DNA of 32,000 nt, taken from NCBI GenBank assembly GCA_014872785.1, contig WKFJ01000056.1, positions 82,794 to 114,793 of the forward strand, in the 5' to 3' direction. Below, in pieces: positions 7,930 through 31,120 of this stretch; positions within the stretch are counted from its first letter, which is position 1, and each line of letters starts with the position of its first letter. The notes beneath the pieces were generated by a model. It ran no database searches. It was not told where the DNA came from and worked only from the letters and a program-made list of their open reading frames with translations. This stretch comes from Alteromonadaceae bacterium. GTDB lineage: Bacteria > Pseudomonadota > Gammaproteobacteria > Enterobacterales > Alteromonadaceae. Position numbers and translations under genes: made by a program.

Positions 7930-7968
7930 TCATAATGCACAGTGTAACGACCGACAACTTAACAATCA

Positions 7969-7986
7969 TTTTAATACATCGTACCT
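7969..7986 (-). other. Ter-like site T1 (reads AGGTACGATGTATTAAAA on the minus strand)
   Basis: Matches the tus-proximal copy at 14/18 positions. Inverted relative to T2. Resembles the E. coli Ter core GTATGTTGTAACTAA. Confidence 0.55.
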
Positions 7987-8173
7987 ATATACCCTACTTG
8001 CAAAACCTAACCGCGCGTTGCGCGGTTGCGCCCGCCGCCCCTTATGGGGCGCCCATGAGGGTTAGCCAAGACAAACGAGAGAAAGACGAAGTGAGCGCTG
8101 CACCGAATGTCGAGACAACCGACAGGTCAATGCCCGGCGCACGGGGGTGGGAAAGGCACGAAACGGCATCTTT
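7987..8173. other. GC-rich hairpin-forming spacer between inverted Ter-like sites
   Basis: Strong compositional contrast with its AT-rich flanks. Perfect hairpin AACCGCGC-GTT-GCGCGGTT (8009-8027). Second hairpin CGCCCC-TTAT-GGGGCG (8036-8051). An outer pairing CTAACC (8007-8012) / GGTTAG (8060-8065) is also possible. Confidence 0.5.
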
Positions 8174-8191
8174 AGGTAGGATGTATTAAAA
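8174..8191 (+). other. Ter-like site T2 (AGGTAGGATGTATTAAAA)
   Basis: Matches T1 at 17/18 positions in inverted orientation, T3 at 17/18 and T4 at 15/18. Confidence 0.55.
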
Positions 8192-8249
8192 TCGTAGGTG
8201 GTGAGGGTTTCACTGCACAAATAGGATGGTCAGTGCTTGGGGGGGGTTC

Positions 8250-8267
8250 AGGTATGATGTATTAAAA
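8250..8267 (+). other. Ter-like site T3 (AGGTATGATGTATTAAAA)
   Basis: Shares an identical 15-mer, GGTATGATGTATTAA, with the tus-promoter copy T4. Matches 12 of 16 positions of the E. coli core GTATGTTGTAACTAAA, including the G equivalent to G6. Confidence 0.6.
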
Positions 8268-8555
8268 CAGAGCTGGTCTGATGTGTGGAGAACGAGTGTG
8301 CTGAGGCTGTGGCAGAATGTTTTTCAAGGCGACGGATCTGGATTTTTTTACCAATGGCTAACAGTGTGCTCGGTGCCTGCAAAAATATCTTGATTGGTAT
8401 AATAAACCGGCGTAAGTTACATACATGACTTACCGTCATACAGCTTCATCGTTGATAAGCTGTTCATGCACCGACTGCGCAGCAGTTTGTGTTACCCAAA
8501 TCACGCTTATGATTGCCTTGTAAAGGTGCGTAAGTGATTATTTGAGATTGATATT

Positions 8556-9860: not shown

Positions 9861-9868
9861 GAGAAAAC

Positions 9869-10156
9869 ATGAACGCACAGGCAACCGAATTGAGGTCAGA
9901 GTCTGCAATAAAGCGGAAATTGTCAGATTGGTTAGGGGAATTTCTCAGCCGCAGTCGACAAGCAGGAAAGCGCCATAACAGACACAGTGTCGCGCAAATG
10001 TTAGGGATCACCGATTCCTGTCTAAGTCAGTACACGAACCCAAGTAACAGCAAAAAAGCGCCTTGGGAATTTCAGGTCAAAATGTGTTTTTTGGTGGGGA
10101 AAAGTATTATTGAACTCCATCCAGAATTGAATGAGATCCGCATTCAGCATTTCTGA
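9869..10156 (+). CDS. XRE/Cro-like helix-turn-helix protein
   Basis: AGGAG RBS sits over the stop of the upstream gene. HTH-like segment HSVAQMLGITDSCLSQYTN. Confidence 0.6.
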   Translation: MNAQATELRSESAIKRKLSDWLGEFLSRSRQAGKRHNRHSVAQMLGITDSCLSQYTNPSNSKKAPWEFQVKMCFLVGKSIIELHPELNEIRIQHF

Positions 10157-10235
10157 TCTGATTGGGCTGGCCAGCAATCCGTTATTGCCGGTCGGCTCAC
10201 TACTTAATGAGCGATGTTATCAGGAGAAGCGTGCC

Positions 10236-11063
10236 ATGGTGTTATTAGAAAAGGGTCTGCCTAAGTATTTGTATAAGTATCGTTGTTTTGAGGATGACCA
10301 TATCGACGCCCTGACTCGTCACACTATCTATTTTTCACGGGGACGGGAGTTTAATGATCCGTTTGATGCGTGCAAAGATGTTCCAATGATATTAAGTGAC
10401 AGAGAATACGCGGTGAAGTTTTACCAGAAACGAAACCCTAAGAGTTATGCCGATTATCTGAAACGCTTTGGCAGTAAGCAGGCAACCGACGATGCCCTTT
10501 TTAGGACGCTGCAAAATAGCCAGCACGATCACAAAGACATCATCAATGGTGTACTTCAACGGTTAGAATCGTCTTACATTCTCAGTCTATCGACCTCCGC
10601 GACCAATCACCTTTTATGGTCGCATTATGGTGGCTGGCACAGTGGATTTTGTATTCGCTTCAAAACGCAGGCACTGATTGATTCGATGAATATAGAATGT
10701 GCGGGCCCTGTAACATACACAGATGAACCAATTAATCTGTTTAAATTCATGTGTGACGGCCAAGATGATTACGTTAACGAAGCAAGGAGACTGGTTAATC
10801 GCAAATCGATTGCCTGGGAATATGAGCGAGAATATCGATTGATCCACAATCGATTTGCAAACAGTCTCTCTGCAGACGGCTCTATCGCGTGCACCTATCC
10901 AAAAGATTGCGTAGACGCTATTTTCTTTGGCATTCGCACTTGCGAACAGAAGAAACGTGAGCTGTTTGAAATCTATGAAAATCAGGTCATCTACAAAGAA
11001 GTTAGACAAAAACAAGCCAGTTATGAGTTAACCGTTTCAACAGACCGATACCAACCAACCTAA
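10236..11063 (+). CDS. DUF2971-family protein
   Basis: LYKYRCFEDDHIDALTRHTIYFSRGREFNDPFD matches the DUF2971 N-terminal signature (lYkYr ... lyFs....fNDPfE). A later WEYEREYRLI block is also present. Start is set at ATG 10236, which has AGGAG 9 nt upstream; the ORF track begins earlier at 10131. Confidence 0.75.
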   Translation: MVLLEKGLPKYLYKYRCFEDDHIDALTRHTIYFSRGREFNDPFDACKDVPMILSDREYAVKFYQKRNPKSYADYLKRFGSKQATDDALFRTLQNSQHDHKDIINGVLQRLESSYILSLSTSATNHLLWSHYGGWHSGFCIRFKTQALIDSMNIECAGPVTYTDEPINLFKFMCDGQDDYVNEARRLVNRKSIAWEYEREYRLIHNRFANSLSADGSIACTYPKDCVDAIFFGIRTCEQKKRELFEIYENQVIYKEVRQKQASYELTVSTDRYQPT

Positions 11064-11166
11064 ACCGATGAACACCACATCACAGCCGGACTAAAAAGAG
11101 TACTCGCGCATGGTTAGTAATGAGTATAATATTGCTCCATTATAATGCAATTAAGGATGCTGCCCC

Positions 11167-11361
11167 GTGGATCCTGAAGATATGGCGTACATTACTATCG
11201 ACAAAACAGGCTATGTGGATGGTATTTGCTTTTCCAGTGACCCCAAGGCTCTTGAATGGTTGACCCAACAAGAGAACGCGGGCTATCAGGTTCAATATGT
11301 CACCAAAGAATACGGAAAGTCGGTGTTGTTTACCACGCTTACGACTTGGATTACTGCATAG
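11167..11361 (+). CDS. small hypothetical protein (59-64 aa)
   Basis: AAGGA lies upstream of GTG 11167, with an alternative ATG at 11182. An antisense ORF of similar size exists, so coding status is uncertain. Confidence 0.35.
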   Translation: MDPEDMAYITIDKTGYVDGICFSSDPKALEWLTQQENAGYQVQYVTKEYGKSVLFTTLTTWITA

Positions 11362-11530
11362 TAACAACTATCCGTACTTACTCATTGATAATGTTTGTAT
11401 CCGCACAGTTATCTGTTTAGGATGAGGAACGTTTTGAACCTCATTGCAAACCTCAACACCAGGTAGTCGATATCAACAATGGCTTGCCTACATGGTAAGA
11501 GGCAAATACTTAAAATAATAACCTTTGACT

Positions 11531-13162
11531 ATGAAAAATACCTTGCCGTTACTGTCTTTTCGTAAACTTCTTTTGGTGACTTTTACTTTGTGTCTTGTGG
11601 GCTGTCAAAGCACTAACAAGCAAGGTGCAAGCGGCAGTGATATATCCATTGGCTATGTACCCAATGCAACGACATACTACGCGAAGATATCTAAGACAAA
11701 CGAATTACTGTCCGTAAGTAATAAGCGGAGCAAGCTTGGTAAAGGGCAAGAATTTATTCTCGTCTCAGGCAACAGATATCGTCCGGATTACCAGTACAGT
11801 ACTGAGAATAAGTTTAACTGTCGCCCCGATGAGGCTAAGAAGAAATACAGGATCTGCCAAAGCCGCTTCGTGGACGATGGTCTGGTAGCGAACTGGTGGG
11901 CACAAGCTGCACTTGGCGCTGCTACAGGCGGATTGACCATCGGTCTACTGGCACTTGGGGAGCTATCAGATGCTATCGGTGAAGATGACGATACAAGCGA
12001 TAGAGATGGGCTGGTGTTATTTAACCCTGACACGTTTATCGCTATCGTTGAATCCTCGGGATTGCACGCTCATATGCAAGCGGCACTGCCACTACAAAAT
12101 TTAAAAAATGAAGTAGAACGAGATATTAAAAATCGATTTGGCGCATCTCAACGGTTTGGTAAGCAAAACTACATTCATTACGTCAAAGGCCGCTCAGAAG
12201 ACCCAACAAACAAAAAACGACATAACTCATTTTTCCAATCAGAAATGGCATCACTTCGCAATCAACATAAAGCGAGCGTGAAGCGGTTTGAGTTGGCAGC
12301 TAAGAGAAAAGCCGAGGCGTCGGCCAAAATGGCCAGCGCTAAGACCATTTTAGATCAGTACCGAGTGGCAAGCGTGATTTCCAGTGAATATCTACCGACA
12401 TATGCCAAGGCAATCAAAGACGGCATTTACTTCACTAAACGTGATATTACGGTCGCATACAACGAAAGTGAATGCGGTAAAAAAACGTTTTTCGGGAAGT
12501 CCTGCAATAACAAAACGTACGCGGGAAAAATTCTTAAAAACGACATTGTGTATGTCAGCGGCAATTATGTTCGCACGTTGCACACATACAAAGCAGGCAG
12601 AAAATCACCTAGTATAAATGCTGGCAAATACGGCGAAGCTTATGGGAATTACCGCCCATATTTGAAAGAAAACAGAGTGAGCTTTGACAAGGTATTTTCT
12701 AAGTATAGTCCGTCTCGTTTTGCCTCGACTTATCATCCCACTAAACTTGTAGACCAACGCAGCAGCTGGGAAGGTGGTCTTTTTGGATTTATCGAGAAAA
12801 ACCCACTCGCATCAATTGTCATTGGCGCGGCGGCATATAAAGTGGGGGAATGGGCTACAACACCCTCCCCTTCATATTCTAGCAATAGCTACTCTAGCAA
12901 CAGCTCAAGCACTGAGGATTCAAACGCTGCACCATCTGAGGTAACCTTCGAGATAAAAGAACATCACGATGTAGGCGGCTATTCGAGTCTTTGGGTGGAC
13001 TGCTCAAATGGAAAAGAAGGGCGCATTTATTACCAGCACGACCGAAAAAATCGAAAAAAGTGGATGGTAAACCGATTTTTAGGTGTAGATACGTCCCATG
13101 AGACAAAAGAGGAAGCAGCTAGAACAGGATGTGGCCCGGCGCCCTACGGCTTTGTAGATTAA
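11531..13162 (+). CDS. large lipoprotein of unknown function
   Basis: Lipobox in LLLVTFTLCLVGCQS. Also a coiled-coil-like Lys/Ala-rich middle, a Ser-rich linker (SYSSNSYSSNSSS) and a C-terminal Cys-containing module. Confidence 0.75.
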   Translation: MKNTLPLLSFRKLLLVTFTLCLVGCQSTNKQGASGSDISIGYVPNATTYYAKISKTNELLSVSNKRSKLGKGQEFILVSGNRYRPDYQYSTENKFNCRPDEAKKKYRICQSRFVDDGLVANWWAQAALGAATGGLTIGLLALGELSDAIGEDDDTSDRDGLVLFNPDTFIAIVESSGLHAHMQAALPLQNLKNEVERDIKNRFGASQRFGKQNYIHYVKGRSEDPTNKKRHNSFFQSEMASLRNQHKASVKRFELAAKRKAEASAKMASAKTILDQYRVASVISSEYLPTYAKAIKDGIYFTKRDITVAYNESECGKKTFFGKSCNNKTYAGKILKNDIVYVSGNYVRTLHTYKAGRKSPSINAGKYGEAYGNYRPYLKENRVSFDKVFSKYSPSRFASTYHPTKLVDQRSSWEGGLFGFIEKNPLASIVIGAAAYKVGEWATTPSPSYSSNSYSSNSSSTEDSNAAPSEVTFEIKEHHDVGGYSSLWVDCSNGKEGRIYYQHDRKNRKKWMVNRFLGVDTSHETKEEAARTGCGPAPYGFVD

Positions 13163-13245
13163 TATTGGGATTACTGTTGGGCGTTAATTAATTTTCATCA
13201 ACATATTAATGAATCATCATAGCTAAAGATTCATCTTTAGTTATA

Positions 13246-13277
13246 TTAATGCTAATGTATGCGTACAATAGCATTAA
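13246..13277. repeat. 32-bp hairpin repeat E1 (TTAATGCTAATGTATGCGTACAATAGCATTAA)
   Basis: 9-bp perfect arms TTAATGCTA/TAGCATTAA. Identical to E2 at 28/32 positions. Lies 13 bp upstream of ATG 13290. Confidence 0.7.
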
Positions 13278-13289
13278 TTGAGTGTAGCA

Positions 13290-13754
13290 ATGACTGATCG
13301 TATTGATAAAGTGAGAACACGCTATTTCAATGAATTCGCGTACCCACAAAAAAGCTTTAGAGCAGAATATTTAGCAGAAATATCGAACTTCGATATCGCT
13401 AATTGGGATGCACCAAAGAGAGCAGCAAGACTTAGCGCTGCTGTAAAGAACTATAAAACCTCAGAAATGCTAGTTTTCCTACTTTCATTACCAGATATTG
13501 AAGAGATAGATTTGACCCCTACGGTAGTTAAGAAGTTATTTAAGAACTGGTTTAACCGGACTGGTTCACAAAAAGGTATAGTGGCTCTTTTTGGCGTGAA
13601 GGGGCGCATAAAAAAGAGCGAGAATTCTTCGGAGCAATTTATTATTAAGTACGCGGATAAGCACCGTAGGTCGGCAGATAGACACTGGCAGAAATGCCTG
13701 AACAGCATTGACATTATAAAAAAAGAGTATCGGTCTGCTGTCGATTCTAAGTAG
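13290..13754 (+). CDS. hypothetical basic protein (154 aa) flanked by hairpin repeats
   Basis: ORF with ATG at 13290 (TTG at 13278 is also possible). Lys/Arg-rich. No motif recognised. Confidence 0.6.
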   Translation: MTDRIDKVRTRYFNEFAYPQKSFRAEYLAEISNFDIANWDAPKRAARLSAAVKNYKTSEMLVFLLSLPDIEEIDLTPTVVKKLFKNWFNRTGSQKGIVALFGVKGRIKKSENSSEQFIIKYADKHRRSADRHWQKCLNSIDIIKKEYRSAVDSK

Positions 13755-13760
13755 TGCATA

Positions 13761-13792
13761 TTAGTGCTAATGGATGCATACATTAGCATTAA
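13761..13792. repeat. 32-bp hairpin repeat E2 (TTAGTGCTAATGGATGCATACATTAGCATTAA)
   Basis: 12-bp arms with one mismatch. Begins 7 bp after the stop codon of the 13290-13754 gene. Both copies are preceded by ATAT. Confidence 0.7.
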
Positions 13793-13970
13793 TAGTAATG
13801 TGAAAGAGTTAACGATGGCAATTGAGCAAGTTAAGATGATACTTTGTTATTCTTGTTATATCTGCCTGCCGAAGAATAATACTTTCAGAGTTGTTTATGT
13901 CACAACTTTGTTCTTATAAAACAATTACATTAACCTTTGTAAATAACCTGCCGCAAGTTCGCACTCGATA

Positions 13971-14219
13971 TCAGTAATTATTGTTTTTTGGGTATGTGCT
14001 TCGTTGGATTTTCCAGCCCCAACGAGCAATAATTGCTGTTGCGGCCAATTGCAGAAACAGCGTTGTAACGTAAATACCAATACCGAACTTTTCAATGATT
14101 AGCATTTTGGCGTTGAGCCCTATATCAGCTAAAGATGCAATGATATTTGCAATGCAAAACAAGCATGCAAGCCAAAGCACAATCGAAAAAATATTTATGT
14201 CTTTACCAAATAGCTTCAT
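13971..14219 (-). CDS. small membrane protein (82 aa, 2-3 TM)
   Basis: GGGGAG RBS 7 nt upstream. Hydrophobic segments IFSIVLWLACLFCIANIIASL and GIGIYVTTLFLQLAATAII. Confidence 0.6.
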   Translation of the reverse strand: MKLFGKDINIFSIVLWLACLFCIANIIASLADIGLNAKMLIIEKFGIGIYVTTLFLQLAATAIIARWGWKIQRSTYPKNNNY

Positions 14220-14270
14220 ATCATGCTCCCCATACTCGCTTTTAAGGCCGAACCGGATTAATCGGCCAAC

Positions 14271-14507
14271 CTATTTCTCTTTTACTTGAGCTGGAAATCT
14301 TCGGTTAAGAAACATTCCAAGAAATGCTGTTACTATACCGACAAAACAACTTCCCAACATACCTGTAAACGTGGGTTCCTTTCCGAAAAGAATCCATGAA
14401 ATTAAAATACCACCAAAGACAATTGACACTAAGTATTTAGCAGCGCTAGAAGGTTTCGCGAAAACATCTCTGAGCCATGTCAGATAATTTCTGTTGTCGT
14501 TTTTCAT
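14271..14507 (-). CDS. small membrane protein (78 aa, 2 TM)
   Basis: AAAGGA RBS. Hydrophobic segments YLVSIVFGGILISWILF and GSCFVGIVTAFLGMF. Confidence 0.6.
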   Translation of the reverse strand: MKNDNRNYLTWLRDVFAKPSSAAKYLVSIVFGGILISWILFGKEPTFTGMLGSCFVGIVTAFLGMFLNRRFPAQVKEK

Positions 14508-14519
14508 AATTTCCTTTAT

Positions 14520-14816
14520 CTATAAGTTGTCTTCACATTCATTGACTAACTCAAGTTCATTAGAATCTTTTTCTGTCTCCACTCTCGCGCAAGGTATAGG
14601 GACGTTTGTAACTTCATAATCTTGAGAAAGCTTTGCTGTTTCGACAGTTAGTTTTATTAACTCCGTTTTTCTTTTTAAATCAAAGTCAGATGCCATTTCT
14701 CTCAACTCAACTTCCTGAAGAGCAAGATCAATCGCTTTTGGCATTATGTATTCTTCATACACCGCGACTGTAACGATTACACCAACTATGAGACCGACTA
14801 AATATTTACCGTACAT
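14520..14816 (-). CDS. small N-terminally anchored protein (98 aa)
   Basis: N-terminal TM YLVGLIVGVIVTVAVY followed by an acidic, coiled-coil-like tail. Same strand and tight spacing with its neighbours. Confidence 0.55.
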   Translation of the reverse strand: MYGKYLVGLIVGVIVTVAVYEEYIMPKAIDLALQEVELREMASDFDLKRKTELIKLTVETAKLSQDYEVTNVPIPCARVETEKDSNELELVNECEDNL

Positions 14817-14824
14817 GTCTTGCC

Positions 14825-15067
14825 CTACTTATCCACTTTGCTCAAATCGACTAATACAACAGCCTCTTTCTTGTCTTCAGGGATTAATTTTTTCAGAGCA
14901 GAAACAACTTCTTCACTCGAAGTAGCAGGTTGGAAAACAACCAATGGTTTACCCTCTTTTATTCGCTGTTCTAACAACTTCTGCATGCAAATTTCTGGTC
15001 TATCATCTGCCATGACATTATTCTTAGATACGGTTGATTGGTTGATAAATAGTGACACTAGTAGCAT
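14825..15067 (-). CDS. small hypothetical protein (62-80 aa)
   Basis: ORF in the same-strand array. The start is uncertain (ATG 15067 or the internal MADDRPE). Confidence 0.45.
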   Translation of the reverse strand: MLLVSLFINQSTVSKNNVMADDRPEICMQKLLEQRIKEGKPLVVFQPATSSEEVVSALKKLIPEDKKEAVVLVDLSKVDK

Positions 15068-15075
15068 TAGCAGAC

Positions 15076-15204
15076 CTATGGGAGTGTAATTGTTTCTAAA
15101 TACACATCAAAGTAGTTAATAGTATGCGCAAATAACAGTAACCCTAAAGACGTACCGAAAGCACCTCCGCCTATTAGGCTTAGCATCTTTGGGAATGTTT
15201 TCAT
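15076..15204 (-). CDS. possible 42-aa single-TM peptide (not in the supplied ORF track)
   Basis: Hand translation gives MKTFPKMLSLIGGGAFGTSLGLLLFAHTINYFDVYLETITLP. It fills the gap between neighbouring same-strand ORFs. Confidence 0.35.
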   Translation of the reverse strand: MKTFPKMLSLIGGGAFGTSLGLLLFAHTINYFDVYLETITLP

Positions 15205-15268
15205 TTCGCGATCCACCTATACAAATCTTTTTTCCAACCAATAAAATCAATACTTAGCGCCACAACGT

Positions 15269-15493
15269 TCAGAAATTAAGATCAATGTTTGCAGACTTTT
15301 TCCACGCGTCAAACTTGTCTCTGCTAATAGTGATAATTTCATCTGACTGACTCTTCCTGTATTGAACACAGTTCTCACCAAAGAACTCAAAGATTACGCC
15401 GTGCGTTGACTTTATATGTTCCACAAGCGGGTCTTTTCCTGATTTTTCTATTTCGATAGTTGATGCTTTACTACTGCTCATGTTGTTTCCCAT
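15269..15493 (-). CDS. small hypothetical protein (74-79 aa)
   Basis: ATG 15493 overlaps the stop of the upstream ORF as TAATG, suggesting translational coupling. The ORF track begins at 15508. Confidence 0.5.
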   Translation of the reverse strand: MGNNMSSSKASTIEIEKSGKDPLVEHIKSTHGVIFEFFGENCVQYRKSQSDEIITISRDKFDAWKKSANIDLNF

Positions 15494-15687
15494 TAAGCCC
15501 TTGACCAACTAACCACTTCTTGAGCGGCTTGTTTAGGTGATAAAATTCTGTGCTTTCCATTATGATTTTCGGCGTAGCACTGCTCCACCCAAAACTCTAA
15601 ATCTTCATCGTTGAAATTACTGAATTTCCAAAAATAAAACATGAAAGTAGTTTTCCAGCGAAGTTCGTATAATTCAGTCATAATCAA
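15493..15687 (-). CDS. small hypothetical protein (64 aa)
   Basis: ORF in the same-strand array, Trp/Phe-rich. No motif recognised. Confidence 0.45.
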   Translation of the reverse strand: MIMTELYELRWKTTFMFYFWKFSNFNDEDLEFWVEQCYAENHNGKHRILSPKQAAQEVVSWSRA

Positions 15688-15748
15688 AATATCCCATTCA
15701 GTATTAACACACCTTTTAAATTGGTACTCCGACTTTCCATATCATGAA

Positions 15749-16120
15749 CTAATTTTTAAATTCACCCACACTACGTGCGTAATCTTCTATAGAAAAAACC
15801 TTTAGTTCAGAACCTTTATAGAACTTGATTAACGCTCCTAGTGTTTTTGGACCGTAATCTTTTCTGACACATCTCTGATAGTGAAGCCCCCAAAGATAAT
15901 GAGCAATGTAAAAAGTCGCCATAAATGGAAGGATTAACAAATAGCCTAAAAACAACACTGCGATATGCCATTCAGCGCCAGCTAGGCTGATGTTTAATAA
16001 CGGGAACGGCAGCGTGACAATACCAAAACCAGTAAAATATGAAGCTATGGGATCGCTTTGTAAAGCACGTCCTATCCTAGACGATGTCAAGTAATCAAAT
16101 GTCATTTTTGTGTGTCCCAT
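15749..16120 (-). CDS. membrane protein (123 aa, about 3 TM)
   Basis: Hydrophobic segments FTGFGIVTLPFPLLNISLAG and IAVLFLGYLLILPFMATFYIAHYLW. Confidence 0.55.
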   Translation of the reverse strand: MGHTKMTFDYLTSSRIGRALQSDPIASYFTGFGIVTLPFPLLNISLAGAEWHIAVLFLGYLLILPFMATFYIAHYLWGLHYQRCVRKDYGPKTLGALIKFYKGSELKVFSIEDYARSVGEFKN

Positions 16121-16161
16121 TAAACCTATTTTCGTTTAGGTCGTTGTTATTTTCCTACAAG

Positions 16162-16356
16162 TTAAGAAGTAGACCAGCCTAGTTGAATCTCGCGAATATT
16201 CTGATCAACATCAATGCCTCTTAGCTTCTTCGAAGCTTTCATTTCATGATCAAATTCACTTGCTGAAATGTCTCCCCCAATATAATCAAGAATATCTATA
16301 AGCTTATCTGAGTCGACATCGCTATATGACATACCGTAACGCCTTTTGGGGATCAA
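16162..16356 (-). CDS. small acidic hypothetical protein (56-64 aa)
   Basis: ORF in the array. Start is TTG 16356 or ATG 16332. Confidence 0.45.
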   Translation of the reverse strand: MIPKRRYGMSYSDVDSDKLIDILDYIGGDISASEFDHEMKASKKLRGIDVDQNIREIQLGWSTS

Positions 16357-16508
16357 TTCGGTCTCTAGGTTGCAATAAAAACCGAAGTCTAGCGTAATTT
16401 ATTGTTGTTAATTGAGTGCTACGTCCAGTTGAATACTCTTAATTGCTTCTTTCATTTCGTGGTCGCTGTCAGCAATTCTTTTTAACTATTCCAACGGTTC
16501 CATAACCA

Positions 16509-16865
16509 TTATTTCTTTTTACAAGGAAGACTTTCTGACAAAGCAGTTAAAATCTGTGCGGTAGCAGATTGGTGCCGTGTCTGTGGTTTTAGTCTTACAT
16601 TCTTTCTGACGATTTCTAGATATTGTTCGCCGGACATACCGTTGGCAGGACATATTGCGTTTACTACTATCGCCATTTCAGCAACACCGTAGACTAGCCC
16701 CATATACATGCCTACCCCACTATGCACAGTGTCGGGGTCATTAACGAGGCTTTTTTCATATTCGGTTAGATAAACGATAAATCGTTCTCCATCTACGAGC
16801 GCATGACTTTTAGATGCGAATACCAAAGCACACAAAGCAATAATTATTCTCGCTACCTTCAACAT
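16509..16865 (-). CDS. periplasmic Rap1a-like protein (possible T6SS amidase-effector immunity family)
   Basis: GAGGGA RBS upstream of ATG 16865. Signal peptide MLKVARIIIALCALVFASKSHA. The pattern G..YG.....V.NAICPANGMSGEQYLEIVRKNV...P..RH.SA..IL.AL...LPC resembles my recollection of Rap1a-type immunity proteins (C-P ... PC). The family call is tentative. Confidence 0.5.
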   Translation of the reverse strand: MLKVARIIIALCALVFASKSHALVDGERFIVYLTEYEKSLVNDPDTVHSGVGMYMGLVYGVAEMAIVVNAICPANGMSGEQYLEIVRKNVRLKPQTRHQSATAQILTALSESLPCKKK

Positions 16866-16908
16866 TCTTTTTGTTCCCTCTATTGGTCTAATCTTCAATA
16901 CGTTTAAT

Positions 16909-17337
16909 CTATAAAACAAAAACCGAATATACAGAGCTATAAAAACCAAATATAAATAGTAACTGCGCGGTTCTAACACATACTTTTGTACTTCGGTCGT
17001 TCATAGGATTCGTCTGGGCAAAAGAAAGAACATTAATCGTTCCATCGCATTCTAGTCCAGAGTTTCCTTTTGATAGTGAATTTCCATGAAACTCCAGATA
17101 TCGAGCAAAAGATGTCATGGCAAACAATCCTGCAAAAATGGAACATAAATAACTGAACATTCCTACCTTTAGCACCAATAAATCGAACTCGGTAAATTTG
17201 AATTTGCTGAGCAGCAACAAATCGAAAGCCAGCGCGGCCACCGCAATGGTGATAAAAGCTTTATACACGTCTAAGTGAACCGTTGTGAGCTTGCTAGCCA
17301 CTTCCTTACTTATGTCAGATAATTCATACGTTGTCAT
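16909..17337 (-). CDS. membrane protein (142 aa, about 4 TM)
   Basis: GAGGAG RBS upstream of ATG 17337 (MTTYELSD). Several hydrophobic segments. Confidence 0.55.
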   Translation of the reverse strand: MTTYELSDISKEVASKLTTVHLDVYKAFITIAVAALAFDLLLLSKFKFTEFDLLVLKVGMFSYLCSIFAGLFAMTSFARYLEFHGNSLSKGNSGLECDGTINVLSFAQTNPMNDRSTKVCVRTAQLLFIFGFYSSVYSVFVL

Positions 17338-17413
17338 ACAGTCTCTCCTCAGATACTCGCCAATTAGCATTTATACTTTTGTTAGTCGCATGTTTCATGT
17401 AAATAAACACACA

Positions 17414-17433
17414 ATAAGCAAACTATTGCTTAT
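17414..17433. promoter_or_regulatory. perfect palindrome ATAAGCAA-ACTA-TTGCTTAT, candidate operator
   Basis: 8-bp perfect inverted arms with a 4-bp spacer, in the 260-bp divergent intergenic region between the 17337 (-) and 17597 (+) starts. Confidence 0.4.
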
Positions 17434-17596
17434 CTTTATCTTTAGCCTACTAGCATTTATCGTTCGCACTACTATATCGCGTTCATTTGATTGTTAGGAT
17501 TACGGTAAGAAGGTCAAGCGGCAATTTGCAAACTAAGAAATTAAACTACTATCATACCTAAAATATAAAAATCCTTATTTAGATGTTGGGGAGCTT

Positions 17597-26571: not shown

Positions 26572-27483
26572 TTAAAACGAACACAATTGTACGGATAAGC
26601 GCTGGCCTAAACCGTTTATCAACAAATCGTTATTTTCATGCGGAATGCGTTCTGAAAACGAATTGATGCGGTAATGAAATTTGAAACGCTTAGCGTCTCG
26701 GTATCGACCGGCCAAAGTATTGACGAAGGTATCACCGTAGTAGACACAAATACTCGGCAACGACCTTAGCTCATGAGCATCCGACAAGTAAGTGGATGAC
26801 GCCAAAAATCGCTGGTAGTCTTGCCACTTTCTTTCAAAGTCAGGGTTATGTTCGGCGACAACTGTGACGAACTGTTCATCTATCTCGGTTACACTGAACA
26901 CGTGGCCGCTTAGCAATGGAAGCAGGTAAGCCGAATACAAGACGTTTATCTGTTCGGTGATGATGGCGTTTTTTGCCGCCAATGTATCCGCAATAGTATC
27001 GCGCTTTACCCACGCCTCTTTGATGCCGAATATCGCCAAATGGGTGTCAATCACCGACTGCCTATCTTGCACGGTTGTCAGTTTTTCAATTTGCGCATAA
27101 GCGGCGTTTAATTGCTCACGCAGCGCAGTGTCACTCTCCAGCTTATCGATAAGATCTAGTGTCTTGGTCGTGTCTATGCTGACGTTAGCCGTCAACTCGT
27201 ATTTACCCTCAAACCATCGCTCATTCACCTTCTCGACGTCAACCGCCGCTAAACCTAGCGCATTGATTTCTTGTCGAAACTCGCCGTTTATTAGTGTTTC
27301 TTTTCCACCTACGAACAGCGGTAGCGTTAACAAGCCCTGCTTCTTTGCTTCAAGTCGAGCGTGTTGACGGACAATGTAGTCTTGTCTGTTATCAACGTTT
27401 ACCGTTACAACAACGTTCTTGCTCAATGCAGGAAAACACACCCCGAACACCAACAGGATAAGCGTAAAAACCCGTATCACCAT
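26572..27483 (-). CDS. secreted hypothetical protein (303 aa), first gene of the operon divergent from tus
   Basis: Signal peptide MVIRVFTLILLVFGVCFPALS. Long ORF. No motif recognised. Confidence 0.65.
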   Translation of the reverse strand: MVIRVFTLILLVFGVCFPALSKNVVVTVNVDNRQDYIVRQHARLEAKKQGLLTLPLFVGGKETLINGEFRQEINALGLAAVDVEKVNERWFEGKYELTANVSIDTTKTLDLIDKLESDTALREQLNAAYAQIEKLTTVQDRQSVIDTHLAIFGIKEAWVKRDTIADTLAAKNAIITEQINVLYSAYLLPLLSGHVFSVTEIDEQFVTVVAEHNPDFERKWQDYQRFLASSTYLSDAHELRSLPSICVYYGDTFVNTLAGRYRDAKRFKFHYRINSFSERIPHENNDLLINGLGQRLSVQLCSF

Positions 27484-27645
27484 TCACTCCATTATTACGA
27501 TTTCGCCAGTGTATCACCATGCGTGGGTGGCGCGATTAAACGGTAACTTATTAGCGAGTAAAAAACTAGGCAATCTAGATATAGGTAAATTATCTGAGCC
27601 GATATCGCGTTGGTTGTCAGATATTGACGATATGATCGACAAAAA

Positions 27646-27663
27646 GGGTATGATGTATTAATA
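27646..27663 (+). other. Ter-like site T4 in the tus promoter (GGGTATGATGTATTAATA)
   Basis: Lies 40 bp upstream of the tus ATG, in the same orientation relative to tus as E. coli TerB. It overlaps candidate -10 hexamers TATGAT (27649-27654) and TAATAT (27659-27664); candidate -35 elements are TTGACG (27624-27629) and TCGACA (27636-27641). Confidence 0.7.
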
Positions 27664-27703
27664 TTTTACTTGTTGTCAGACAAAGACATTAGCAGGTAAA
27701 TAT

Positions 27704-28648
27704 ATGGCCGCCATTGAAATAGATACCACCAAATACGAGCAAGAAATCAAAGCTATCCGACATGCCTTATTAAGTGTTGAAAGCCACATAAAGGCGTTTT
27801 TAGATGTGCTATCACAAGGTCGAATACTGGCTCCTTCGGTGGTGTATAAATTGCCACAGTTAACCGCTGAAGATATTGGTGTCGATGTGGTCGATATCCC
27901 TGTTCAACCGGTCATTGGTGAACGGTCGTTATCGCACTATGCGCACCATGTGTTGGATTTTCGTATCGACCATGACCATCCGGGCATGATGGCAAAGCGT
28001 CTACCTGGTGTGCTGATTGTTGAGCACAATGAGGAAATAGAACTCATGGAGCGCGTGGCGCATATCAATGCGTTAAAGTCTCAGTTCCATAACATTGTCA
28101 CCGGTGTGGCTAAAAACAAAGATGTTCGCCATGCGATCATGGTGGAAGCTGTGCCACTTTGTATCCGTAAATCAGTGGAGCGTAATTTGTTGTTGTGTCC
28201 GCAGAACTGCCAATCGATCAATTTTTCTTTCACAAGACGCTTGAGCATGCCCAAGCGAACGTTTACCAAAGAACAGCTTGAGCAGGATCTGATACAAAGT
28301 GTGAAATTTTCCAAAAATCCAGCCAAGCAACAAGAACAAGTGGATATTGATATCGCGTCGTTGAAAAACGCCAATCACGCTCACCATTTTCGCGTTGCAA
28401 GACCGCTGCGGGTAAACCCAGTGTACAATTTCTATTTAACGAAACCTGAAATCAATGAACAAGGAAAGTTGAAGAAGAGTCGCAGTAAAACCGCTGTTGC
28501 CCACACACCCGTCTTGTGTATAAACCAAGCGCCCAATATTGGCACATTAAAGAGCTATATTGGGCAAAGCACCGCGGACAATCCATTGGGGGATCCTGTC
28601 ATTGAAAGGCTTCATGTATATGCCGACAACAGGGCCGTCAGTCTTTAG
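27704..28648 (+). CDS. tus: DNA replication terminus site-binding protein Tus
   Basis: Length is similar to E. coli Tus (314 aa here, about 309 aa there). Collinear blocks (this window vs E. coli): KRLPGVL vs VRLPGVL; VAHINALKSQFHNIVTG vs IQHINKLKTTFEHIVT; FRVARPLRVNPV vs KIKRPVKVQPI; AHTPVLCIN vs CPTPLIALIN; IERLHVYADN vs IPRLHLYVAD. Confidence 0.9.
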   Translation: MAAIEIDTTKYEQEIKAIRHALLSVESHIKAFLDVLSQGRILAPSVVYKLPQLTAEDIGVDVVDIPVQPVIGERSLSHYAHHVLDFRIDHDHPGMMAKRLPGVLIVEHNEEIELMERVAHINALKSQFHNIVTGVAKNKDVRHAIMVEAVPLCIRKSVERNLLLCPQNCQSINFSFTRRLSMPKRTFTKEQLEQDLIQSVKFSKNPAKQQEQVDIDIASLKNANHAHHFRVARPLRVNPVYNFYLTKPEINEQGKLKKSRSKTAVAHTPVLCINQAPNIGTLKSYIGQSTADNPLGDPVIERLHVYADNRAVSL

Positions 28649-29825
28649 CGGTAAATTTGAGAGGCGGGCGTCCACTCGCCTCAACAAACTCGACATTGGA
28701 TGCTCTACCAATTTGCTTTTTTGCACTATCTTCGCCGAATAGCTCTACAGCGCGAATGTCGAACATAATATTGCCACATTTAATGCATTCAACTGAGAGT
28801 GTCTCAAGCACTTCAGTGTCTCTTACACCATCTACAACAAAAGCAAGTTTAAAGTTAGAGGAAAAGCAGGTCTGGCAGATTAATCTATCTTGTTTATGGC
28901 GCTTATCTGACGCTTCTTTTATATCGTTTAATGAATAATAAATATTATCAGCTGGCAAACAAAGATAATGCTCAAAGATAATGCTAGCTAGGATACTTTG
29001 CCCTCTTCCAGCTTTGTCGCGACTCCAATCATTAAACGACCAATTTTCATTTTGTGCCCTTAAGAGCAATCCACTGATTCGGTTTATCATCGAGTTGACC
29101 GCGTGCGGCTTCGGCACCCCTTTTTTCTTATAAAATTCGTTGGCGTCTTTAACGGCCTTGTTGATGAAATAAAAGAGTTTGGACGGGCTGAGATTCCAAA
29201 GTGCATCTTTAAAAAGGTCGGTCAGACCCGCTTGACACGTTAATGGTAACTCATAAGCATTAAGCAGCAGCTGTGTATAGTAAAGACATTCCTCAATTTG
29301 CAACTCAACTATCTTATCCAATGCATAGTCCTGATCACCATCCAAGAAATGACGACTCAACACGTTTAGTCCATAAGCTTTGATATCCGCATGACTTCCC
29401 CAACGCTCATATTCGGTTTCACTATCAAATTCATCACTATGCGCGTCTATAGTAAATACGTATTCACAAGAGAGCGGAAAGTAGCTCAAATCTCCAGCAT
29501 CGTTAAATTCAAAGCCAGAGTCTTTGGACAGTTCAACCTCAACGCAAAGAAATGAATTTGGATTTGCTGGATGATCTAACCAGCCACTAAACCCATATAG
29601 CTTGGCATCAAACTCAGGAGAAGGTGTCAGGTCTAGTGTTGCACCGCCACGGTGATATGGCGGAATAGAAAAACAAAGCTCAAGCTCTTTGTCTGGATTA
29701 AAATCAATTAATGAAATAATGACGGCCCAATCGAACGGATCTATATTTCGTCGGTGACAGGGATCGCTTGCTTTAGAGCCTATCGTCGATTCCAATTCAA
29801 CTTTCTGTTCATCGGTTAGCGTCAA
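28638..29825 (-). CDS. hypothetical protein (395 aa) with C-terminal CxxC...CxxC zinc-ribbon-like motif
   Basis: TTG start with AAGGA 10 nt upstream. CQTC and CIKC are about 40 aa apart near the C-terminus. The 3' end overlaps the tus 3' end by 11 bp. Confidence 0.6.
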   Translation of the reverse strand: MTLTDEQKVELESTIGSKASDPCHRRNIDPFDWAVIISLIDFNPDKELELCFSIPPYHRGGATLDLTPSPEFDAKLYGFSGWLDHPANPNSFLCVEVELSKDSGFEFNDAGDLSYFPLSCEYVFTIDAHSDEFDSETEYERWGSHADIKAYGLNVLSRHFLDGDQDYALDKIVELQIEECLYYTQLLLNAYELPLTCQAGLTDLFKDALWNLSPSKLFYFINKAVKDANEFYKKKGVPKPHAVNSMINRISGLLLRAQNENWSFNDWSRDKAGRGQSILASIIFEHYLCLPADNIYYSLNDIKEASDKRHKQDRLICQTCFSSNFKLAFVVDGVRDTEVLETLSVECIKCGNIMFDIRAVELFGEDSAKKQIGRASNVEFVEASGRPPLKFTAKD

Positions 29826-29924: not shown

Positions 29925-30704
29925 CTAACCAACCCCCGTTAATTTAAGCAAACTCTCAAGATTTCTAACAGGTGCCTGGGCATTGGCGATGGGTTCAAAA
30001 ACAAAATTATCGACGCGCGCTTCAGGTCTACCAAAATAATAACCTTGGCCAAAGTCGCCGCCTACACGCTGAGCAAGCGATAAATGCTCTGCCGTTTCTA
30101 TCCCTTCCACCACAACTTTCACGCCAATATCATGGAAGCAATTTACGAGTGCGCGCAGACTTTTTTCGTCATCCACACTTTCAGCCGCTTCACGCACCAG
30201 CGTCATGTCTGTTTTTATGATCCCAGGCTTCATCTTCATAACGTGACGAAAATTCGAAATTCCAGCACCGAAGTCGTCACAGACGATAGGATGGCCGTTG
30301 TTTCGAGCATGCTTCACATTGTGGTAAAAACCCGACACATCTTTCGGTAAGTCATTTTCCGTAACTTCAATCACAACAGATGACGGATGCAAACCCTGCT
30401 CGTAAAATGATTCAAGCGCTTCTGGAAATTGGGGGTGACAAATTTGTTCAGGAGAGAAGTTAACAAACACTGTTCTTAATTTACCCTCGATCACCATTTC
30501 CCGAATTTGCTTGGCAAGGCCGCGCACTAAAAATGACATATGCTCGACAAACAGTGCTGGCTCCTGACAGAAATCCTGCATTTTTAACTGGTTGAATTCA
30601 CGTAAGAGGAGTTCATGGGCAACCACTTTGTTATCCCGCATCCTGACAATAGGCTGGTGGGCAAAACTAACGCGGTGACTGTCCAGTTTAATGATATTTG
30701 TCAT
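29925..30704 (-). CDS. stand-alone EAL-domain protein (cyclic-di-GMP phosphodiesterase)
   Basis: EAL-domain signature blocks: HELLLR (ELL variant of EAL), FVNFS, VIEVTE, DDFGAGISN, IKTD, VVEGIET, QGYYFGRP. Confidence 0.85.
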   Translation of the reverse strand: MTNIIKLDSHRVSFAHQPIVRMRDNKVVAHELLLREFNQLKMQDFCQEPALFVEHMSFLVRGLAKQIREMVIEGKLRTVFVNFSPEQICHPQFPEALESFYEQGLHPSSVVIEVTENDLPKDVSGFYHNVKHARNNGHPIVCDDFGAGISNFRHVMKMKPGIIKTDMTLVREAAESVDDEKSLRALVNCFHDIGVKVVVEGIETAEHLSLAQRVGGDFGQGYYFGRPEARVDNFVFEPIANAQAPVRNLESLLKLTGVG

Positions 30705-31120
30705 GATGAAGCGTTTCCTAAATTTACCGCTGTAAATGGGTCGATGATCGCGTTTATTTTGTTGTTTTTATAGATGATAGCGGTATCAAAATGGGTGTTA
30801 TTGTTACTAGTCAGAGTGATCACTGAATATTTACGTTCGGCTTTTATAGATAGCGATTTAACTGTGCTTTTCTTGTGCCAGAACAAAAACCGTCTGACGT
30901 ACACGAGTTCTCCACCCAGCTCATATAATTGTTCATACCAAAAAGGGCTAATCAGAAGAGGAAGTGCGGGCAGCAGTAACACACCACTGATCACACCTTG
31001 GTACAATGAAGCATGGTAAAGGGATATAGCCAGATAAAAGATGATGGCGCACACACCCGCAAATACCGTCAAACGGTAAATGGGATTATTAAACATTACA
31101 TAGTAATAAATGTACGGCAT
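30701..31120 (-). CDS. membrane protein (139 aa, 2 TM) translationally coupled to the EAL gene
   Basis: ATGA overlap with the EAL start. TMs LTVFAGVCAIIFYLAISLY and VISGVLLLPALPLLISPF. Soluble C-terminal ~70 aa. Confidence 0.6.
   Translation of the reverse strand: MPYIYYYVMFNNPIYRLTVFAGVCAIIFYLAISLYHASLYQGVISGVLLLPALPLLISPFWYEQLYELGGELVYVRRFLFWHKKSTVKSLSIKAERKYSVITLTSNNNTHFDTAIIYKNNKINAIIDPFTAVNLGNASS

Follow-up and report, generated by a model that had tools for sequence, protein, structure and literature searches.

A divergent Tus homologue and inverted Ter-like sites in an Alteromonadaceae contig, probably a split copy of a plasmid-type Tus-Ter cassette

The window (the whole stretch of 32,000 nucleotides analysed here) carries a gene for a very divergent protein of the Tus family and four copies of a Ter-like motif, three of which make up an inverted dyad far upstream of the gene. 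What it carries is probably a self-contained Tus-Ter cassette, of a type found on marine MOBH-type conjugative plasmids, in a copy that has been split. Under this reading the 314-aa Tus would bind RGGTA-N-GATGTATTAAWA sites and, given the polarity of E. coli (with the G6 end as the non-permissive face), forks arriving from either side would pass the first arm of the dyad and halt at the second, with the result that the dyad would be where replication of the replicon, presumably a plasmid or chromid, comes to its end. The site nearest tus would serve at the same time as an operator for autorepression by Tus, on the model of TerB-tus.

The Tus-family protein

The tus gene (27704–28648, + strand, ATG start) encodes a 314-aa protein of a very divergent lineage of Tus-family terminus-site-binding proteins. 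An earlier note on this DNA had called it a Tus homologue on the basis of several blocks in its translation, and these were found (RLPGVL, HINALKSQFHNIVT, RPLRVNP and IERLHVY). The identification was borne out by the profile search proposed at that time, which returned a significant and full-length match to Pfam PF05472 (97 bits, the cut-off being 22; E 1.4e-27) with protein residues 18–306 aligned to positions 2–296 of the 296 in the profile. The Tus structure 1ECR of the PDB was matched by a profile of the clade with an E value of 7e-50 (residues 4–293 onto 5–307). The Tus fold consists of two alpha/beta domains with interdomain beta-strands that clamp the DNA, and the AF2 model of the protein (pLDDT 90.3, pTM 0.83) is predicted to adopt it; a Foldseek search of the PDB with this model returned Tus chains only (4XR1 and 1ECR, E 5e-22, TM 0.72–0.74), the next match having an E value of 0.56.

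Identity to E. coli Tus is about 20%, and the protein scores below the NCBIfam equivalog cut-offs for enterobacterial Tus (46.9 against 178.3 bits for TIGR02648 and 64.8 against 323 bits for NF002810). It is a member of the Tus family, but one that lies below the ortholog level of the equivalog. The closest relatives found in an exhaustive protein search are 33–36% identical to it and all metagenomic.

In E. coli Tus the pocket of the C(6) lock is said, after work by Mulcair et al. in 2006, to comprise I79, F140, H144 and G149. The counterparts of these residues in a MAFFT alignment of the window protein are I88, H143, V147 and L152, respectively, so that H144 and G149 are not kept, a difference from E. 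coli Tus that is joined by the plasmid-type context of the gene. Across the clade the four positions are occupied by I or L, by a nearly invariant F, by K or S, and by variable residues. The counterpart of position 6 is a G:C pair in all four sites of the window. The cytosine-lock pocket thus appears, from the alignment, to be kept only in part, and because the E. coli pocket is not conserved, a lock of the mousetrap type, and hence strong polarity, is uncertain for this protein.

Ter-like sites in the window

The Ter-like sites are AGGTACGATGTATTAAAA (7969–7986, − strand), AGGTAGGATGTATTAAAA (8174–8191, +), AGGTATGATGTATTAAAA (8250–8267, +) and GGGTATGATGTATTAATA (27646–27663, +), the last of these being the 18-mer previously pointed out 40 bp before the tus ATG. 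A scan of the window for the motif, allowing up to three mismatches, found these four copies against 0.03 expected, and none of 100 shuffles reached four. An exact 15-mer, GGTANGATGTATTAA, is common to all of them, while position 9 is T, C or G. From these copies, the cognate site of the window Tus is predicted to be of approximately 17 bp, RGGTA-N-GATGTATTAAWA, and the core for the whole family is GGTAYGATGTA-K-T-W. The earlier proposal of a diverged Ter consensus therefore holds as regards a conserved motif, but the consensus itself needs adjusting to this core, with position 9 left as T, C or G. No description of the motif was found in the searchable literature, in line with what had been supposed.

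The first three copies form a head-to-head dyad (7969–8267) located 19.4 kb upstream of tus, in which the 7969 site on the − strand faces the 8174 and 8250 sites on the + strand. One of the four copies was seen in the earlier note, the dyad lying 19.4 kb outside its coordinates. As the left arm of the dyad, the 7969 site would by analogy with E. coli stop leftward forks, the 8174 site is predicted to be the innermost one stopping rightward forks and the 8250 site, in the same orientation, to be a second, back-up site. The site before tus is presumed to be an autoregulatory operator and the outermost barrier to rightward forks. TerB of E. coli stops clockwise forks. With the − site to the left of all three + sites the layout is that of a trap, whose permissive faces would point outward if the polarity is that of E. 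coli. A recent duplication was rejected as the origin of the Ter copies on either side of the 19-kb insert, since similarity between them is confined to the 15-nt core.

The 187-bp spacer between the Ter(−) and Ter(+) arms (7987–8173) is presumed to be a fork-fusion zone. It contains GC hairpins (8009–8027 and 8036–8051), a C-rich run and a purine-rich tract (approximately 8067–8097), and its DNA fold has an energy of −18 kcal/mol (z −2.45). The related loci L002, L004 and L132 and the IncC loci L182 and L183 share this architecture but differ in sequence. No site in the window lies within eight mismatches of E. coli dif, and the sole match to V. cholerae dif1 is a poor one at 7081.

Aligned to positions 6–20 of E. 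coli TerB, GGGTATGATGTATTAATA matches at 6–10, 12–15 and 19 and mismatches at 11, 16, 17, 18 and 20, which agrees with the earlier description of a site matching most of the Ter core, G6 included, and differing at 11 and 16–18. Eight of the 11 specified positions of the E. coli core consensus GNRNGTTGTAACNA are matched, the mismatches being at 11, 16 and 17 (GATGTAKT against GTTGTAAC); G6, A8, G10, T12, G13, T14 and A15 are core positions in common. However, 150 sites in the window lie within three mismatches of GNRNGTTGTAACNA and so reach the score of the site before tus, and the resemblance to the E. coli core, taken alone, is weak and not significant. The site first singled out by this similarity is genuine and conserved, but the argument from similarity is a weak one; the real evidence for Ter-like sites would seem to lie in their repetition, in the dyad architecture and in conservation across very divergent relatives.

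The 27646 site lies on the tus strand with its G6 end distal. This is the strand and polarity of TerB relative to tus in E. coli, where Ter likewise lies immediately upstream of tus (the reference orientation was taken from a TerB+tus query matching 5424 E. coli genomes), and it agrees with the arrangement claimed earlier. The tus-proximal arm has the same strand and polarity in 12 related loci. The site is enclosed by a promoter-like element (27636–27664, +) made up of TCGACA (27636–41), a 17-nt spacer and TAATAT (27659–64). Two −10-like hexamers, TATGAT (27649–54) and the same TAATAT, are found in or overlapping the site, as the earlier note had stated, but promoter-like matches near it are not above chance (four found against 3.0 expected from shuffles). 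An arrangement of the autoregulation type thus appears to be present, with the Ter-like site on the tus strand and within a putative tus promoter.

The cassette in relatives and the inserted cargo

The arrangement hyp178(−), Ter(−), a spacer of 180–270 bp, Ter(+), tus and EAL, usually followed by traG, was found in at least nine Tus lineages, whose proteins share 26–45% pairwise identity, and the core GGTAYGATGTA is present in eight of the nine. Three loci which were reached through the protein, namely L002, L132 (the plasmid of Alteromonas mediterranea 615) and L004, encode Tus proteins 35, 28 and 32% identical to that of the window, respectively, and each has a single inverted dyad with the same or a near-identical core beside the same genes. 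The Tus of the Alteromonas plasmid has the accession AGP79917.1. Among 12 tus loci beyond the window, exactly one dyad was found in each of the 11 with enough flanking sequence, with Ter(−) at the same position as the 7969 site of the window, and L165, at a contig edge, retains the tus-proximal arm only. This arm is on the tus strand in every related tus locus.

A scan of metagenomes by DNA alone, with TACATCNTACC-N165-195-GGTANGATGTA, returned 18 loci, in nine of which a Tus ORF (E ≤ 1e-56) abuts the Ter(+) arm; the other nine have no tus nearby, and several of these have longer palindromic arms. The search patterns fixed positions 5–15 of the family consensus, so that the invariance of these positions across the metagenome loci is partly circular and is independent only for L002, L132 and L004. 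Position 17, which the searched pattern did not include, is T in all 26 sites. At positions 13 and 16–18 the variant is the same in both arms of one element and differs between elements (TTA, GTA, GTT, CTA, GATATA). Elsewhere, AGGTANGATGTATTAAAAY had 22 matches among 185,579 species genomes, all of them single and unrelated, viral contigs gave nothing beyond single chance matches, PLSDB plasmids showed no DNA-level similarity to the dyad region, and neither a dyad nor a related core was found within 8 kb of tus on a Photobacterium plasmid of the pAQU type (L133).

The gene order Pal/OmpA, hyp178, dyad, tus, EAL, hyp140, hyp217 and traG is found on a complete MOBH plasmid and on many contigs, and the window genes of the Pal/OmpA, hyp178, tus, EAL and hyp140 families have the order and orientation seen in CP004847.1 and at least seven metagenome contigs. 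The left-hand marker of the conserved cassette is the 3′ end of a Pal/OmpA-like gene (1–240, +), 46–49% identical by tblastn to the OmpA/Pal gene left of the dyad in four related loci. It is followed by hyp188 (7363–7929, −), a conserved hypothetical gene which is transcribed divergently from the Ter(−) arm and for which Pfam and NCBIfam gave no match. This gene is 26% identical (E 1e-11) to a 168-aa gene at the same position in L002, and its family (hyp178) flanks the dyad in six further loci. Beyond tus lie its conserved neighbour, an EAL-domain gene of the c-di-GMP phosphodiesterase type (29925–30704, −; Pfam EAL E 1e-39) that shares 40–50% identity with the EAL gene found shortly after tus in seven relatives, and then hyp139 (30701–31120, −), a small conserved gene which follows the EAL gene in the cassette and is 25% identical to its equivalents in L002 and L003. 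In the relatives, traG starts about 1 kb before the position that corresponds to the right end of the window.

Between the Ter(+) arms and tus the window holds approximately 19 kb of cargo (8556–27483), with genes for a DUF2971 protein, a Rap1a immunity protein and a 1213-aa AHH-nuclease toxin (Pfam assignments). Its GC content drops to 37–38% at 13–18 kb, and two ORFs of 183 aa within it (at 24065 and 25096) are not paralogues. The cargo is absent from seven syntenic cassettes of relatives, where Ter(+) directly precedes tus, and is for this reason placed outside the ancestral cassette. In the ancestral form the Ter(+) arm itself would have been the tus operator, and the cargo would have been inserted between the dyad and tus, a separate Ter(+) copy being left at the promoter.

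Replicon type, alternative readings and comparison with known systems

The earlier note had taken the tus locus to mark a replication terminus. This is plausible for a plasmid-type replicon, but a chromosomal terminus, as distinct from a plasmid one, was not borne out: the synteny of the cassette is that of MOBH conjugative plasmids, with traG adjoining in relatives, and any terminus here is for this reason most likely of the plasmid type. That the window instead holds a resident tus and Ter sites where the two chromosomal forks of a gammaproteobacterium meet is unlikely. The orientation of the sites does form a proper trap, the window is rich in orphan and accessory genes and cargo insertions, as termini often are, and there is precedent for the domestication of a tus gene from a plasmid, Pseudoalteromonas chromosome II being one case (PMC6549158, PMC7858055). 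No tra, rep or par domain was found in any window ORF of at least 120 aa, which would also suit a chromosome, but all relatives with enough flanking sequence have traG or TraG_N beside the cassette and one of them is a complete plasmid of the conjugative type. GC skew is positive in the left flank (+0.081), approximately zero in the insert and negative in the right flank (−0.045), a signal over 32 kb that is confounded by gene strand and by the insert, and once the insert is included the switch is missing at the dyad itself. Neither housekeeping genes nor, in or near the dyad, a dif-like site are present, and the window contains no tRNA genes or Rfam families.

The one complete Alteromonas plasmid, of 200 kb, allowed the position of the dyad on a whole replicon to be seen. 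The core occurs in it just twice, as a dyad at 137.3–137.5 kb. The cumulative GC-skew minimum, a ParA gene and a switch in gene orientation coincide at 37–38 kb, and the antipode of this minimum, at 138.6 kb, compares with 137.4 kb for the dyad, where local skew changes sign; the global skew maximum is a plateau at 140–175 kb that is confounded by gene orientation. IncC plasmids have an analogous dyad whose core, TGCATGATGGTCTA, is another; it is found upstream of the tus gene (annotated 'ter'), at 119.8–120.0 kb in the numbering of pSH163_135, and lies 17.6 kb from repA, and an antipodal terminus is therefore not a general property of such dyads.

It is improbable that the sites serve only as operators, with the Tus homologue or another regulator controlling the divergent hyp188 and tus promoters through them and fork arrest playing no part. 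In the ancestral dyad both arms do face a gene start (hyp178 or tus), the −10-like TATGAT falls within the core, conservation of the C(6)-lock pocket is poor and the spacer could be plain promoter DNA. Against this, the extra Ter(+) copies at 8174 and 8250 are approximately 300–380 bp from the next ORF, the exact 15-mer is kept in all copies although the dyad is 19 kb from tus, and a single dyad opposite the presumptive origin of a 200-kb plasmid fits a role in replication. In the sole case studied, a monomeric Tus-fold protein that clamps DNA acts as a polar barrier, and the roles of operator and barrier are compatible, as at TerB. Repeats unrelated to Tus, such as the termini of a miniature transposable element or the sites at which an invertible DNA switch recombines, would account for inverted repeats of 17–22 nt set 180–270 bp apart around a structured spacer and for the metagenome dyads without tus, but are a very remote prospect in view of the one dyad per element even in the whole 200-kb plasmid, its fixed position between the same two genes while proteins are approximately 30% identical and the spacer diverges freely, the lack of an adjacent recombinase or transposase, the direct orientation of three window copies and the alignment of the core with that of E. 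coli Ter in the correct register and polarity.

The plasmid-type cassette can be compared with several known systems. Plasmids R6K and R1/R100 have closely spaced or origin-proximal Ter sites which use the Tus of the host. The R1 sites are summarised in PMC10331603. These plasmids share with the cassette an opposed pair of Ter sites setting the end of replication, whatever its place relative to the origin, but their sites are of the E. coli type and they have no tus, whereas the window element encodes its own divergent Tus with a putative matching orthogonal Ter, and cassettes of its type add a conserved spacer with a hairpin and homopurine tract. A Tus-fold protein is also common to E. coli TerB-tus and the type I chromosomal fork traps described by Toft et al. 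(2021, PMC8707476) for Enterobacterales outside the Enterobacteriaceae. As there, a Ter site of opposite orientation closes the trap, and the ancestral cassette has its innermost Ter next to tus; the narrowest chromosomal trap described is 18 kb wide (PMC8707476), whereas that of the cassette measures 0.2–0.3 kb.

Plasmid-borne tus genes have been annotated as 'ter' on the MOBH plasmids pAQU1, IncA/C and IncT Rts1 (PMC4036041), and a 'mobile' class of tus has been recognised (Galli et al. 2019, PMC6549158). In the former the gene likewise lies in a MOBH backbone, near traF, traH and traG, and in searchable papers it was found as an annotation only, with no cognate DNA site described. The pAQU-type Tus is 23% identical to that of the window and belongs to a separate clade, and IncC plasmids have their own dyad with a core, TGCATGATGGTCTA, unlike the window motif. 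The tus of Pseudoalteromonas chromosome II (PMC7858055) is also non-enterobacterial, of plasmid ancestry and from a marine gammaproteobacterium, but it lies beside ori2, repA and parAB, whereas the window has no rep or par nearby and its sites are directly readable; a search of this chromid with the E. coli consensus found no ter (Xie et al. 2021, PMC7858055).

A broader proposal is put forward tentatively. The combination of tus with an inverted Ter dyad of 0.2–0.3 kb, whose spacer carries a hairpin and homopurine tract, may be an ancient terminus cassette of MOBH-type conjugative plasmids, with several orthogonal Tus/Ter specificities (GGTAYGATGTA in marine forms, TGCATGATGGTCTA), a source of domesticated chromosomal fork traps, and a spacer that would be a functional element for fork fusion or termination rather than just promoter DNA. 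To our knowledge, no Ter site has yet been defined outside Enterobacterales. In a review of 2023, the drawing still has a question mark at the ter site of non-enterobacterial systems (PMC10331603). If the reading as a terminus cassette is true, the window motif would be the first readable Ter code outside that order. Repetition, arrangement as a dyad and conservation among proteins of approximately 30% identity are what make the putative cognate site of this divergent clade directly readable.

This provides a concrete sequence for tests of binding and fork arrest, with Alteromonas mediterranea 615, which carries the cassette on its 200-kb plasmid, as a culturable host. A minimal orthogonal Tus-Ter pair might also be useful as a programmable barrier to forks or transcription. 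Because the plasmid form already packs tus, operator and opposing Ter into approximately 1.3 kb, it lends support to the proposed domestication of fork traps from plasmid to chromosome (Galli et al. 2019, PMC6549158).

A Tus-family gene is present in 1289 plasmid records of PLSDB. The TGCATGATGGTCTA form of the dyad was found in approximately 970 IncC-type plasmids and in some Pseudoalteromonas plasmids; its presence upstream of tus in IncC plasmids, which are clinically important, is previously unreported.

A remote Tus-family protein and Ter-like sites

The 314-aa product of the ORF at 27704-28648 (+) was matched end to end by the Pfam family PF05472 (Tus/Ter protein; 97 bits, E 1.4e-27, cut-off 22), while it scored far under the NCBIfam equivalog cut-offs for enterobacterial Tus. 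A single-sequence search against the E. coli Tus structures gave only E 5e-6, but a profile of the protein and its 21 nearest relatives matched 1ECR end to end at E 7e-50. The AlphaFold2 model (pLDDT 90.3, pTM 0.83) resembled E. coli Tus alone in the PDB (E 5e-22, TM 0.72-0.74), the next match having an E-value of 0.56. On the strength of these Pfam, profile and model matches, membership of the Tus family, as proposed in the earlier note, is secure. When 1.84 billion cluster representatives were searched exhaustively, the best relatives were 33-36% identical, all of them from metagenomes; the lineage is thus a remote one.

The Ter-like 18-mer reported 40 bp upstream of the tus ATG was confirmed as GGGTATGATGTATTAATA at 27646-27663 (+). 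Scanning the window with this sequence, allowing up to 3 mismatches, returned four copies against 0.03 expected, the others being AGGTACGATGTATTAAAA at 7969-7986 (-), AGGTAGGATGTATTAAAA at 8174-8191 (+) and AGGTATGATGTATTAAAA at 8250-8267 (+), all three within one 627-bp intergenic region (7930-8555). The exact 15-mer GGTANGATGTATTAA is common to all four. A weaker fifth candidate, TGAAAGATGTATTAA at 25062-25076 (-), within the insert described below, departs from the 15-mer core at 2 positions; chance alone would give about 0.2 matches of this quality, so it is probably not meaningful.

The 18-mer had also been aligned with the E. coli Ter core, from which it differs at positions 11, 16 and 17 (and at 18 and 20 when compared with TerB). 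These positions were correct, but since 150 window sites lie within 3 mismatches of the E. coli core GNRNGTTGTAACNA, the likeness is weak evidence, and it is repetition, architecture and comparison that carry the case for a Ter-like element. A promoter-like element surrounds the tus-proximal site (TCGACA at 27636-41, 17 nt, TAATAT at 27659-64) and TATGAT is also present within the core, in keeping with the -10 hexamers noted previously, with a count of promoter-like matches near the site no higher than in shuffles.

A query joining TerB, the 10-nt linker and tus had matches at approximately 100% in 5424 E. coli genomes, so TerB carries G6 on the coding strand of tus, at the end farther from the gene. 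The tus-proximal site of the window lies on the same strand relative to tus and has the same polarity, so that its orientation does copy TerB-tus. In E. coli, a clockwise fork coming from upstream of tus is stopped by TerB. Given this known polarity, the (+) sites would stop rightward forks and the (-) site leftward forks; 7969(-) and 8174(+) would then form a trap, 187 bp wide, which forks could enter but not leave, with 8250(+) and 27646(+) as back-up sites.

The window thus encodes a protein with the Tus fold and contains a conserved asymmetric site four times over, in a trap layout, one copy lying inside a promoter-like element. In the mechanism we propose, a Tus monomer would bind each of the four sites, forks reaching the G6 end of a site would be arrested, fork fusion would be limited to the 187-bp spacer and Tus would repress its own promoter. 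The cytosine-lock residues of E. coli Tus, reportedly I79, F140, H144 and G149 (Mulcair et al., 2006), align with I88, H143, V147 and L152 of the window protein, where the first alone is kept. Across the clade F140 is nearly invariant and H144 and G149 are not kept. The strength of polarity of the window Tus at these sites is uncertain.

A conserved dyad-tus cassette

Contigs of relatives were retrieved via the protein, making this set independent of the DNA motif. In locus L002 (Tus 35% identical), GGGTATGATGTAGTATAT (-) and AAGGTATGATGTAGTATAA (+) lie directly upstream of tus with 266 nt between them, and in L004 (32% identical) there is a perfect 17-nt inverted repeat, AGGGTACGATATAGTTA, with arms 266 nt apart. 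The nearest plasmid relative in PLSDB, the 200,847-bp MOBH plasmid of Alteromonas mediterranea 615 (28% identical), carries a perfect 22-nt inverted repeat, CTATAAAGGTATGATGTAGTTA, with cores 183 nt apart and a (+) arm that stops ~20 bp short of tus.

JGI metagenome contigs were then scanned for the bare architecture TACATCNTACC-N(165-195)-GGTANGATGTA. This DNA-only scan returned 18 loci, and in 9 of these a Tus ORF (E 1e-56 to 1e-104, using an HMM from the Tus alignment) abuts the (+) arm, some of the remaining contigs being too short to tell whether tus adjoins. As the Tus family is rare (80 clusters at E <= 1e-3 among the 1.84 billion), the association cannot be due to chance. Exactly one dyad was present in 11 of 12 tus loci beyond the window; at L165, which lies at a contig edge, the tus-proximal arm alone is left. 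In all 13 tus loci this arm is carried on the tus strand. Position 17, outside the search pattern, is T in 26/26 distinct sites; A is absent from position 16, and position 18 is restricted to A or T. The invariance of positions 5-15 is set by the search pattern in the metagenome loci and is independent in the three protein-found loci only. Both arms of one element carry the identical variant at 13 and 16-18 and elements differ from each other (TTA, GTA, GTT, CTA, GATATA-GTT). This is concerted change, such as would follow from the reading of both arms by a single co-evolving protein. The Tus proteins of these lineages share only 26-45% identity.

The spacer between the Ter arms (window 7987-8173; L002 2911-3176; L004 1594-1859; Alteromonas plasmid 7744-7926 of L132; IncC plasmid 3721-3911 of L182) has in each case a GC hairpin, a C-rich run and a 30-50-nt homopurine/homopyrimidine tract, and 22 nt separate the hairpin from the Ter(-) core in L002, L004 and the window. 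The Pseudoalteromonas plasmid locus L183 has these spacer features as well. This architecture is kept while the sequence diverges between lineages. The spacer had no Rfam match.

Gene order in the relatives is constant: Pal/OmpA(+), small ORFs, hyp178(-), dyad, tus(+), EAL(-), hyp140(-), hyp217(+) and traG(-). As the Pal/OmpA 3' end (1-240), the hyp178 homologue hyp188 (7363-7929, -), tus, the EAL gene (29925-30704, -) and the hyp140 homologue (30701-31120) occur in the same order and orientation in the window, it is a copy of this cassette with inserted DNA. The insertions comprise ~6.5 kb between Pal/OmpA and hyp188, ~19 kb between the dyad and tus (8556-27483) and one gene between tus and EAL (28638-29825). 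The ~19-kb insert encodes a DUF2971 protein (10131-11063), a Rap1a immunity protein (16509-16979) and a 1213-aa protein ending in an AHH nuclease toxin domain (19259-22900), and has a GC content of 37-38% along 13-18 kb. In L004 the cassette is broken at the same junction by ~7 kb with ParB_N, ThiF and E2-like genes; that a different insert uses this junction suggests that DNA is preferentially inserted next to the site of presumed fork arrest, as at a hotspot. A 303-aa gene (26572-27483, -), now divergent from tus, is 31-33% identical to a gene just past traG in the Alteromonas plasmid and L165, so a backbone gene has been moved next to tus.

The hyp188 family, without Pfam or NCBIfam match, is always divergent from tus across the dyad (L002, L004, L132, L166, L167, L171, L172), and may share regulation through the Ter(-) arm or act as a functional partner. 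The EAL gene is a conserved immediate neighbor of tus across the clade (40-50% identity). A c-di-GMP phosphodiesterase-type protein is thus consistently tied to the terminus cassette.

Replicon and possible terminus

The 200 kb of the Alteromonas plasmid contain only two copies of the core, at 137,337 and 137,531, and these form the dyad. Its presumptive origin is indicated by the minimum of cumulative GC skew (38.2 kb), a ParA gene (37.3 kb) and a gene-orientation switch (36.4/37.3 kb), and has its antipode at 138.6 kb. Local skew across the cassette changes from +0.053 to -0.085; the global maximum, however, spreads over a plateau between 140 and 175 kb and is influenced by gene orientation. 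In the window, skew is +0.081 in the left flank, where even (-) strand genes are mostly positive, ~0 in the insert and -0.045 in the right flank, a pattern that is suggestive only.

No dif-like site, tRNA gene, Rfam family or tra/rep/par domain was found in the window. Our best guess is that its replicon is a plasmid, chromid or plasmid-derived, because the cassette of the relatives adjoins traG, once on a complete plasmid. A two-way trap in an element integrated far from a chromosomal terminus would be expected to block host forks, which would favor an autonomous replicon or a terminus-proximal position. The earlier note was right on Tus and the diverged Ter but incomplete on architecture, and its "terminus" label is unproven, a plasmid-type terminus being most likely.

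Known systems and other tus loci

R6K and R1 have E. coli-type Ter sites and need host Tus; those of R1 have been summarized (PMC10331603). In type I chromosomal traps the innermost Ter is vicinal to tus, and the narrowest is 18 kb (Toft et al., 2021; PMC8707476); the ancestral cassette also has this layout but is 0.2-0.3 kb wide. The tus genes annotated on pAQU1, IncA/C and Rts1 plasmids (PMC4036041) belong to a plasmid-borne 'mobile' class (Galli et al.; PMC6549158), and a search with the E. coli consensus found no ter sites in Pseudoalteromonas (Xie et al.; PMC7858055). No description of cognate sites for the pAQU1, IncA/C and Rts1-type genes was found in the open-access literature, nor one of the diverged motif, in line with the previous claim of novelty; motif matches in open-access full texts were unrelated primer sequences only, and an older description is possible. 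The sites described here make the non-enterobacterial Ter code directly testable.

Tus-family genes occur in 1289 PLSDB records, of which 1069 are conjugative. On the IncC plasmid pSH163_135, arms TTAGACCATCATGCAA and TTGCATGATGGTCTAA are separated by ~190 nt and immediately precede tus (L182 3705-3927; NC_019116.1, ~119.76-119.98 kb), and the region is conserved in 973 PLSDB records. The proximal arm reads TGCATGATGGTCTA on the tus strand and has G-N-A-T-G-A-T-G in common with the window site. A MOBH plasmid of Pseudoalteromonas agarivorans has a dyad with the same core and similar arm spacing, likewise directly before its tus (L183 3727-3926; NZ_CP033067.1). No description of the IncC/Pseudoalteromonas dyad was found in the open-access literature. 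On the 135-kb circle of the IncC plasmid, 17.6 kb separate the dyad from repA, so that an IncC-family trap would give strongly asymmetric replication and not mark the antipode.

The PLSDB plasmid entry NZ_AP026896.1 is in fact a 4.94-Mb chromosome of Aeromonas caviae, with a tus region at 1.73 Mb that is unannotated there. The stretch immediately before this tus has an element GTATGATGG, carried by the opposite strand, and GGTATGGTTATTTATA; these may be an Aeromonas Ter variant.
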